Below are positions 20,642-21,261 of a DNA stretch of 32,000 nt, in pieces. Source of the stretch: Promethearchaeota archaeon. Lineage in GTDB: Archaea; Asgardarchaeota; Thorarchaeia; Thorarchaeales; Thorarchaeaceae. The stretch's first letter is position 1, and each line of letters begins with the position of its first letter. The notes under the pieces are model-generated. The model was not told where the DNA came from and made no database searches. It worked only from the letters and a program-made list of their open reading frames with translations. A program made the position numbers and the translations under genes. Location of the stretch: assembly GCA_027031765.1 (NCBI GenBank), contig JALVPN010000040.1:113265-145264 (forward strand), written 5' to 3'.

Positions 20642-20742
20642 CCTGCCGACCTCGCGCCTTCGTCACAATGCCTCCCCAACAACTCGCACTATCAGTTTTA
20701 TGGTGTCGGCCCACAGTTAGAACACGTGTTCTATTCGTAAAG

Positions 20743-20764
20743 ACCCCTCTGTTTCGTGTGGAAC
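20743..20764 (-). promoter_or_regulatory. Origin recognition box (ORB)
   Basis: GTTCCACACGAAACAGAGGGGT: TTCC-N4-GAAA dyad plus G-string, like Orc1/Cdc6 ORBs. Confidence 0.8.
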
Positions 20765-20880
20765 TGGCAAGACACAAAATATACCAATTAACCAAACATA
20801 TTTATATCAGTTTTCAGTACGTGCCTTAAGCTCTTTCTAAATATATAACAACAAGTACATACAGGTCCAGCTCTTCAAGA

Positions 20881-20902
20881 GTTCCACTCGAAACAATGGG
20901 GT
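20881..20902 (+). promoter_or_regulatory. Origin recognition box (ORB)
   Basis: GTTCCACTCGAAACAATGGGGT. Confidence 0.8.
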
Positions 20903-20961
20903 GTATCACGGTACGGGTTGTATTACTCGTGCTACAACGTTACGCTCTATGGAACACGTGT

Positions 20962-21261
20962 TCATACAGCCACGGGCAACTCGCGTTCGATGCTAAAGGC
21001 CCTCACTTTGAGGATATCACGGTAGTTGGCAAAGAGCTGGTCAAACTGATCCTTCATATGGACTGGTACCATTATGGCTGAGTCGGTGACTACCTCGCAT
21101 AGCGGTGACGAGTCGACTAGTCCCGGCTTTCGTCGCGTTTTGAGGCCGCCCCGTGTCTTCCATGTATATGTGTAGCCATAGAGCTCCTTTGTGAATGCAA
21201 TCCTCCTGGCATTCCGTTGGCGTGAATTGATACAATCGTAGACATAGAGCACAGTTTCCAT
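20962..21261 (-). CDS. Small hypothetical protein, possibly Cas2/VapD-like ferredoxin fold
   Basis: VLYVYD N-terminal strand, FTKELYGY, GLVD...SAIMV; 99 aa. Confidence 0.6.
   Translation of the reverse strand: METVLYVYDCINSRQRNARRIAFTKELYGYTYTWKTRGGLKTRRKPGLVDSSPLCEVVTDSAIMVPVHMKDQFDQLFANYRDILKVRAFSIERELPVAV

Follow-up and report, generated by a model that had tools for sequence, protein, structure and literature searches.

A probable oriC1-type replication origin in Thorarchaeota, lying apart from its orc1-1 initiator gene

Introduction

In oriC1 of Sulfolobus/Saccharolobus, two inverted origin recognition boxes (ORBs) are placed around an AT-rich duplex unwinding element (DUE), each ORB binds one Orc1-1 monomer with a defined polarity and the functional core, ORB3-DUE-ORB2, spans 130 bp (PMC12141716). 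A third, more distant ORB is also present there, and the orc1-1 gene is immediately adjacent. A related plan is found in the haloarchaea, as in Haloarcula hispanica oriC1m and Haloferax volcanii oriC1, where an AT-rich region lies between two inverted, essential ORBs with the consensus GTTCCAGTGGAAAC-AAA----GGGGG (PMC3936714, PMC1868953); in these origins the G-strings stand at the ORB ends and the polarity of the G-C skew is inverted with respect to bacteria.

In our literature searches, ORB-type origins were not found described for any Asgard archaeon, Thorarchaeota included, and in the one Asgard paper naming an origin the G-C skew minimum was chosen without motif evidence (PMC9246712). The locus analysed here resembles Sulfolobus oriC1 in its two inverted ORBs around an AT-rich spacer, in the comparable size of its ORB-spacer-ORB module (160 bp), in a third, more distant ORB (4.4 kb away in this case) and in its initiator, the closest homologue of Sulfolobus Orc1-1. 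It differs in that orc1-1 is on another contig, and 62-156 kb off in relatives, and in being flanked by GAACAYRTGTTC palindromes, which are not described for Sulfolobus oriC1 (PMC12141716). It shares with the haloarchaeal origins the AT-rich region between inverted boxes, the G-strings at the box ends and the inverted skew polarity. As an oriC1-type origin the candidate is known in kind; its lineage is new, its initiator gene is unlinked and two uncharacterised accessory features accompany it.

Results

The window, by which we mean the whole 32,000-nucleotide stretch analysed (positions 113265-145264 of contig C40 of assembly G000), contains two 22-bp boxes in inverted orientation at positions 134,007-134,166 of the contig. 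The left box (ORB-L, 20743-20764, minus strand) reads ACCCCTCTGTTTCGTGTGGAAC in top-strand letters, the reverse complement of GTTCCACACGAAACAGAGGGGT, and matches the euryarchaeal ORB consensus as quoted in PMC1868953; the right box (ORB-R, 20881-20902, plus strand) reads GTTCCACTCGAAACAATGGGGT. Both G-strings point away from the spacer, so that the outer sides of the pair show a C-run at the left box and a G-run at the right box, and the full consensus, with the dyad TTCCA-N3-GAAA followed by a G-string, is matched three times in the window. The 116-bp spacer between the boxes (20765-20880, no strand), a putative duplex unwinding element, is 67.2% A+T, with 70% in its central 83 bp, compared to a genome mean of 41%. 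When all 116-bp segments of the assembly were ranked by A+T content, the spacer region came out on top (68.1% at C40:134012), although its lead is narrow, 68% vs. up to 66% elsewhere. The original prediction of two inverted 22-bp boxes 116 bp apart with outward G-strings is therefore borne out by the letters of the window, whereas its figure of 72% A+T for the core was too high.

Its description of the neighbours as iorA and a small gene of no known family also holds. The iorA gene (18749-20641, minus strand) was identified by its Pfam domains POR_N, TPP_enzyme_C and Fer4, and both iorA and iorB are on the minus strand; the spacer is upstream of iorA, whose promoter could be inside it. No RNA family of Rfam was detected in the region of the pair or in that of the third ORB.

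The rarity of the boxes was assayed by pattern scans. A degenerate pattern allowing up to three mismatches (<=3) found three sites in the window against 0.01 expected from shuffled sequence, and scans of the whole assembly (2.95 Mb in 229 contigs, 95% complete) detected only three full ORBs, all of them within the window. The boxes are thus confined to this locus, full ORBs being found nowhere else in the genome, and are not scattered through promoters, an outcome that had been named at the outset as speaking against an origin. The third full ORB (25317-25338, plus strand, GTTCCACTGGAAACAGGGGGGT) is near-perfect and lies 4.4 kb from the pair, with its G-string away from the pair. In six further Thorarchaeota genomes (G041, G009, G042, G043, G044 and G045) the matches were essentially confined to the pair and a third ORB 4.1-4.2 kb from it, one of the six showing a single box of the pair only at that stringency, and a reversed-pattern control gave zero matches in these six genomes. 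A pair accompanied by a third ORB at 3-4.2 kb was detected in G041, G009, G042, G043, G045, G019, G007, G015 and G004.

The third ORB stands in a 587-bp gene-free region (25038-25624), in which a degenerate inverted ORB-like box can also be seen (about 25131-25151, minus strand), some 165 bp from the third ORB, the DNA between them not being AT-rich. This region is upstream of a gene for a 210-aa protein (24405-25037, minus strand) with no Pfam family, whose nearest Atlas cluster has 68 members and is commonest in Thorarchaeota.

The conservation of the locus was followed from iorA, whose closest relatives (70-74% identity) are all from Candidatus Thorarchaeota MAGs. An outward inverted ORB pair with a spacer of about 115-125 bp was present upstream of iorA in 12 of 12 Thorarchaeota loci and in one locus of a sister family. 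Read towards iorA, the aligned cassette runs from the small gene's end through a palindrome and the left ORB, across the AT-rich core, to the right ORB, followed by a second palindrome, a conserved 16-mer and the ribosome-binding site of iorA. The AT-rich core contains partly conserved motifs in the relatives; one of them, approximately AAAATGGAGATAAA, has one orientation with respect to iorA here and in locus L016 and the opposite one (TTTATCTCCATTTT) in ten other loci, and the ORB-DUE-ORB core may have been inverted between its flanking palindromes.

Outside Thorarchaeota, an outward pair was detected 1-2 kb upstream of the best-scoring orc1/cdc6 gene in ten genomes of nine other Asgard families (G025, G026, G029, G035, G066, G070, G078, G088, G094 and G100). 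These belong to the sister family f2 and, for the remaining nine genomes, to eight further families, and in 5 of the 10 the gene was shown to be of the Orc1-1 type by a search with the Thorarchaeota Orc1-1 protein. The pairs, which are sites predicted from sequence, have the same box sequence and outward polarity as the one described here, with centre-to-centre distances of 140-210 bp and a third ORB in most cases, and the same small gene ends beside the pair in five of those families; they differ in adjoining an orc1/cdc6 gene, from which the Thorarchaeaceae pair is separated because orc1-1 has apparently moved away. Where a third ORB was seen near the gene in these other families, it was about 200-260 bp upstream of orc1-1. 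In the sister family (G025), orc1-1 is followed by an ORB, the small gene, the ORB pair and iorA, and in Thorarchaeaceae the pair and iorA stay together with the third ORB 3-4.4 kb away. Most simply, the third ORB at 25317 would be a relic of the orc1-proximal ORB of other Asgard lineages. As the pair adjoins an orc1/cdc6 gene in other Asgard families, the unlinked orc1-1 is a derived state specific to Thorarchaeaceae. In one Asgard genome that consists of a single 1.4-Mb contig (G026:C1:622354-625502), the small gene, the outward ORB pair (622653/622864) and the best-scoring orc1/cdc6 gene are found together; should this be the closed Odinarchaeum genome, the origin suggested in print, a G-C skew minimum taken as position 1 (PMC9246712), would be at a different place.

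Only two genes with a Cdc6_C domain were detected in the assembly, C190:1413-2729 and C40:159907-161106, and none within the 32-kb window. The product of the former is of the Orc1-1 type, matching Sulfolobus Orc1-1/Cdc6-1 (2qby_A, 3e-107) and Aeropyrum ORC1 (2v1u_A, 1.5e-106) and passing the NCBIfam ORC1-type equivalog NF001625 with 519 bits (cut-off 501). Its winged-helix segments QRRVSD and GRYG(K/R)TK are conserved, so the genome encodes an Orc1-1-type protein with intact DNA-reading elements. The product of the latter is of the Cdc6-2 type (best match 1fnn, 6e-60), and its gene is 26 kb to the right of the pair, outside the window; a tRNA-like sequence was seen by eye just upstream of it (C40 around 159.55 kb; L002 around 262-350). 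The nearest cdc6-family gene is thus 26 kb off and orc1-1 is on another contig. Across Thorarchaeaceae the Cdc6-2 gene is 15-26 kb from the pair, and orc1-1, on the same side of the pair as Cdc6-2, was found at 62-64 kb in three relatives (G009, G042 and G043) and at about 146-156 kb in two others (G004 and G019). The earlier statement that no cdc6 gene is linked to the module hence holds for direct adjacency and for the window, but not for the contig, which carries the Cdc6-2 gene, nor for the relatives, with orc1-1 at 62-156 kb. Adjacency of an initiator gene is a typical feature used by prediction tools and not a mechanistic requirement; as no initiator gene is directly adjacent here, an origin at this site must be served in trans.

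Directly upstream of the start codon of orc1-1 (C190, around 2675-2727) there are two tandem mini-ORB dyads GTTCCAGTGGAA with a 20-bp period, together with an inverted ORB-like box with a G-string, and no AT-rich element is present at this site. This mini-ORB array is probably an autoregulatory operator.

The orientation of the G-strings was compared across a 151-genome sample of the phylum, in which the ORB pattern matched 88 genomes, with about a dozen matches of the reversed control overall. Close inverted pairs were outward (minus-then-plus) in 16 genomes, plus-then-minus in two and on the same strand in one; with one mismatch allowed, both a plus-then-minus case (G015) and the same-strand case (G007) showed an outward pair plus an extra or double-sided box. 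In the validated ori-pHV1 of Haloferax volcanii the repeats have their tails outward, with minus-strand copies to the left of the DUE and plus-strand copies to its right; no clear ORB-like matches were detected in H. volcanii pHV3 with the pattern used. Haloarcula hispanica oriC1 has essential G-strings at the ORB ends, as a C-run in site I and a G-run in site II, and a separate G-rich repeat "directly inside" the two ORBs (PMC3936714). We read this layout as outward, the text not assigning the sites to sides. An explicit orientation of the G-string with respect to the DUE was not found in PMC4010727, PMC5333045, PMC3607249, PMC3089459, PMC11880632, PMC7617429 or the supplements of PMC12141716.

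It had been suggested along with the original prediction, subject to checking, that G-strings face the AT core in characterised origins, so that the geometry here would be possibly unusual. The text on Haloarcula oriC1, ori-pHV1 and the Asgard pairs all point outward instead, and the same polarity is seen at the orc1/cdc6-adjacent pairs of ten genomes from nine other Asgard families; given those pairs, the geometry of the pair described here can be taken as canonical. Since the AAA+ domain is reported to read the G-string (PMC3936714), outward G-strings would place the winged-helix domains next to the spacer, in agreement with MCM being recruited to the DUE, as described for Sulfolobus (PMC12141716).

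The ORB module is bracketed by two identical 12-bp palindromes, GAACACGTGTTC, one at 20720-20731 (no strand), 11 bp outside the G-string of ORB-L, and the other at 20952-20963 (no strand), 49 bp outside ORB-R and overlapping the stop codon of the small gene. In the 2.95-Mb assembly there are three copies of the palindrome compared to 0.14 expected, and two of the three flank the ORB pair. The palindrome is found on both sides of the cassette in 12 of 12 aligned Thorarchaeota loci and is linked to the pair in families f2, f7, f19 and f21: in G066 both genome-wide copies are within about 0.5 kb of the ORB pair, in G094 the sole copy is likewise, and the pairs of G025 and G078 are flanked by it as well. 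No copy was detected at the corresponding sites of families f3, f6 and f12.

The small gene (20962-21267, minus strand; 99 aa from the ATG at 21261, 20965-21261) corresponds to an ORF of 99-101 aa transcribed towards the module and encodes a basic protein (pI about 8-10). It ends next to the cassette in the Thorarchaeota loci (f1), and its homologue ends about 20-90 bp from an ORB of the pair in families f2, f3, f7, f19 and f21, so that across these six Asgard families the ORB pair has it as an invariant neighbour. The protein is annotated everywhere as a hypothetical protein; it could be placed in no family of Pfam or NCBIfam, nor was a PDB sequence relative found. Its structural model has a confident ferredoxin-like fold (pLDDT 91.7); structural searches with Foldseek and VIA-align did not assign it to a family, as they gave only generic ferredoxin-like matches (best Z 7.3; Cas2 4es1, TM 0.5). 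When modelled as a homodimer, the protein passed the controls, with a score of 0.67 compared to 0.13 for the best control, and the runs agreed in at least 98% of contacts with a partner pLDDT of at least 87. Among proteins of solved structure, 20 of 30 one-chain pairs and 1 of 23 single chains came up to this mark, counts that hold only roughly because an own alignment was used. The models support self-binding of the small protein as a homodimer but do not show it. A symmetric dimer would suit a palindromic site, and binding of the protein to DNA is putative.

The strand composition of contig C40 (179 kb) was analysed by cumulative skews. The purine excess increases steadily up to position 133,436, where it stands at 7334, and declines thereafter, and the A-T skew peaks at 133,859, so that both maxima are 0.2-0.65 kb from the pair. 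The plateau within 100 of the purine maximum extends from 128.9 to 137.7 kb, so that the turn is located to within about 4-5 kb in each direction; taken by itself, the G-C skew has its peak 9 kb leftward of the pair. At third-codon positions, the top-strand purine skew was +0.07 (plus-strand genes) and +0.11 (minus-strand genes) to the left of the pair, and -0.13 and -0.09, respectively, to the right; in intergenic DNA it was +0.065 on the left and -0.091 on the right. Therefore, the flip on C40 is independent of gene orientation. When the 83 contigs with a length of 12 kb or more (2.16 Mb) were compared, no other came near the turn on C40 (rise 7334, fall 3452), all remaining turns being about 800 or less, and the eight other contigs tabulated, seven of the next-largest and C190 with orc1-1, gave monotonic curves. 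The skew did not reverse over the 45 kb rightward of the pair or on C190. The skew analysis proposed with the original prediction thus places a flip of strand composition at the ORB pair. The G+C content of C40 is 54.7% (52-54% around the pair) compared to an assembly mean of 59.2%.

The sole other usable Thorarchaeota contig, a 52-kb ORB-bearing contig of G041, showed a G-C skew maximum 3 kb and an A-T skew minimum 0.6 kb from the pair, the G-C flip being in the same direction as on C40 and the A-T flip of opposite sign. In the 4-6 kb flanks of ten related loci, skew signs were dominated by the coding strand of a few genes. A whole-chromosome skew on G041 (CP070658.1, 2.58 Mb) was discarded as meaningless, since the record is made of contigs concatenated in arbitrary order and strand. 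Despite its title of "chromosome", CP070658.1 contains 399 runs of exactly 100 N and is not closed, so that whole-genome skew or synteny taken from it is unsafe.

Discussion

Taken together, the results indicate that the locus is very probably an active chromosomal replication origin of Thorarchaeota, of the oriC1 type and dependent on Orc1-1. This assignment is drawn from consensus ORBs that stand inverted on either side of the assembly's most AT-rich 116 bp and are found nowhere else in the genome, a layout conserved across Thorarchaeota, a flip of strand composition at the site, an Orc1-1-type initiator encoded elsewhere and the same outward pair beside an orc1/cdc6 gene in other Asgard families. 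Motif, uniqueness, conservation, skew and initiator strongly support the replication origin that had been predicted at the start.

In the mechanism we propose, one ATP-bound Orc1-1 monomer would occupy each inverted ORB, the winged-helix domain contacting the TTCCA-N3-GAAA dyad on the spacer side and the AAA+ domain contacting the G-string on the outer side. Together the two monomers would distort the DNA and bring MCM to the 116-bp AT-rich spacer, and replication would proceed bidirectionally from there. The initiator would be supplied in trans because a rearrangement in Thorarchaeaceae separated the orc1-1 gene from the origin. Binding of Orc1-1, loading of MCM and actual firing at the pair are all inferred.

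Alternatively, the site could be a relic or dormant origin whose only present role is regulatory, Orc1 binding there acting for instance on iorA, the small gene or the organisation of the chromosome, with replication starting elsewhere or by recombination. In favour of this explanation, orc1-1 has been relocated and has a mini-ORB array of its own in its promoter, and dormant origins and origin-independent replication are documented in other archaea (PMC4595724, PMC5663688). We nevertheless consider it improbable, as the flip centred on the site is strong and independent of gene orientation, no comparable turn was found in 2.16 Mb of other contigs, and the curve does not reverse in the 45 kb rightward of the pair or on the orc1-1 contig.

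In bacteria and Pyrococcus the leading strand is G-rich, and a maximum of the cumulative G-C skew then marks the terminus. Under this polarity the site would be a replication terminus, or else an old inversion breakpoint, with incidental ORBs, and slightly more coding DNA does lie on the purine-rich strand to the left of the site (63.5 vs. 52.4 kb). Skew alone cannot decide between an origin and a terminus, but ORB-DUE-ORB modules are origin elements, and we know of no archaeal terminus with ORBs. In addition, homologous pairs adjoin the best-scoring orc1/cdc6 gene in nine other Asgard families, and the pair has both cdc6-family genes nearby to one side, with Cdc6-2 and, among the relatives, orc1-1 lying within 24-156 kb, all of which makes a terminus or breakpoint very improbable. 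If the site is an origin, the leading strand at the pair is C-rich, opposite to that of bacteria and Pyrococcus. For such a polarity the haloarchaea offer a precedent, a C-rich leading strand or inverted G-C polarity having been reported for them (PMC1868953).

That the cassette is only the iorA promoter and the terminator of the small gene, with transcription-factor sites resembling ORBs by chance, is suggested by its position between two co-directional genes and by a TATA-like AT-rich motif in the spacer of the relatives, but can be set aside as extremely improbable, because the boxes fit the 22-bp ORB consensus including the G-string, are absent from the rest of the genome, other promoters included, and form a pair upstream of an orc1/cdc6 gene in other Asgard families.

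Beyond the ORB module, we tentatively consider that Asgard origins might have a second, lineage-specific accessory system, in which the GAACAYRTGTTC palindromes are bound by a dimer of the small ferredoxin-fold protein, although we regard this as rather doubtful. The idea comes from the small gene, which keeps its place next to the ORB pair across six Asgard families, even with orc1-1 relocated, from the palindrome being nearly unique to the origin in five families and from the homodimer model that passes its controls. Such a system would be a functional analogue of ucm/UBP of Sulfolobus, controlling origin firing or the exit of MCM; UBP itself is restricted to Sulfolobales and Desulfurococcales (PMC12141716).

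The locus provides a precise, conserved and testable candidate, in which the pair of 22-bp boxes, the 116-bp spacer between them and the initiator gene are all specified, and indicates that Asgard archaea keep the classic Orc1/ORB plan of origins. It would also be a natural case of an origin uncoupled from its initiator gene, a point of relevance to the "replicator-initiator pair" model for the evolution of archaeal origins (PMC4010727). Predictors that require an adjacent cdc6 gene would overlook the origin of Thorarchaeota.

A short intergenic region of another contig (C110:59852-60004), which includes a TATA-like stretch, holds the remaining genomic copy of GAACACGTGTTC at a distance of 120 bp from a lone ORB-like box, GCTCCATTGGAAACCATGGGGT. 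This combination of box and palindrome was considered as a second origin and rejected, as there is no skew turn at that position; the site may be an Orc1-regulated promoter.
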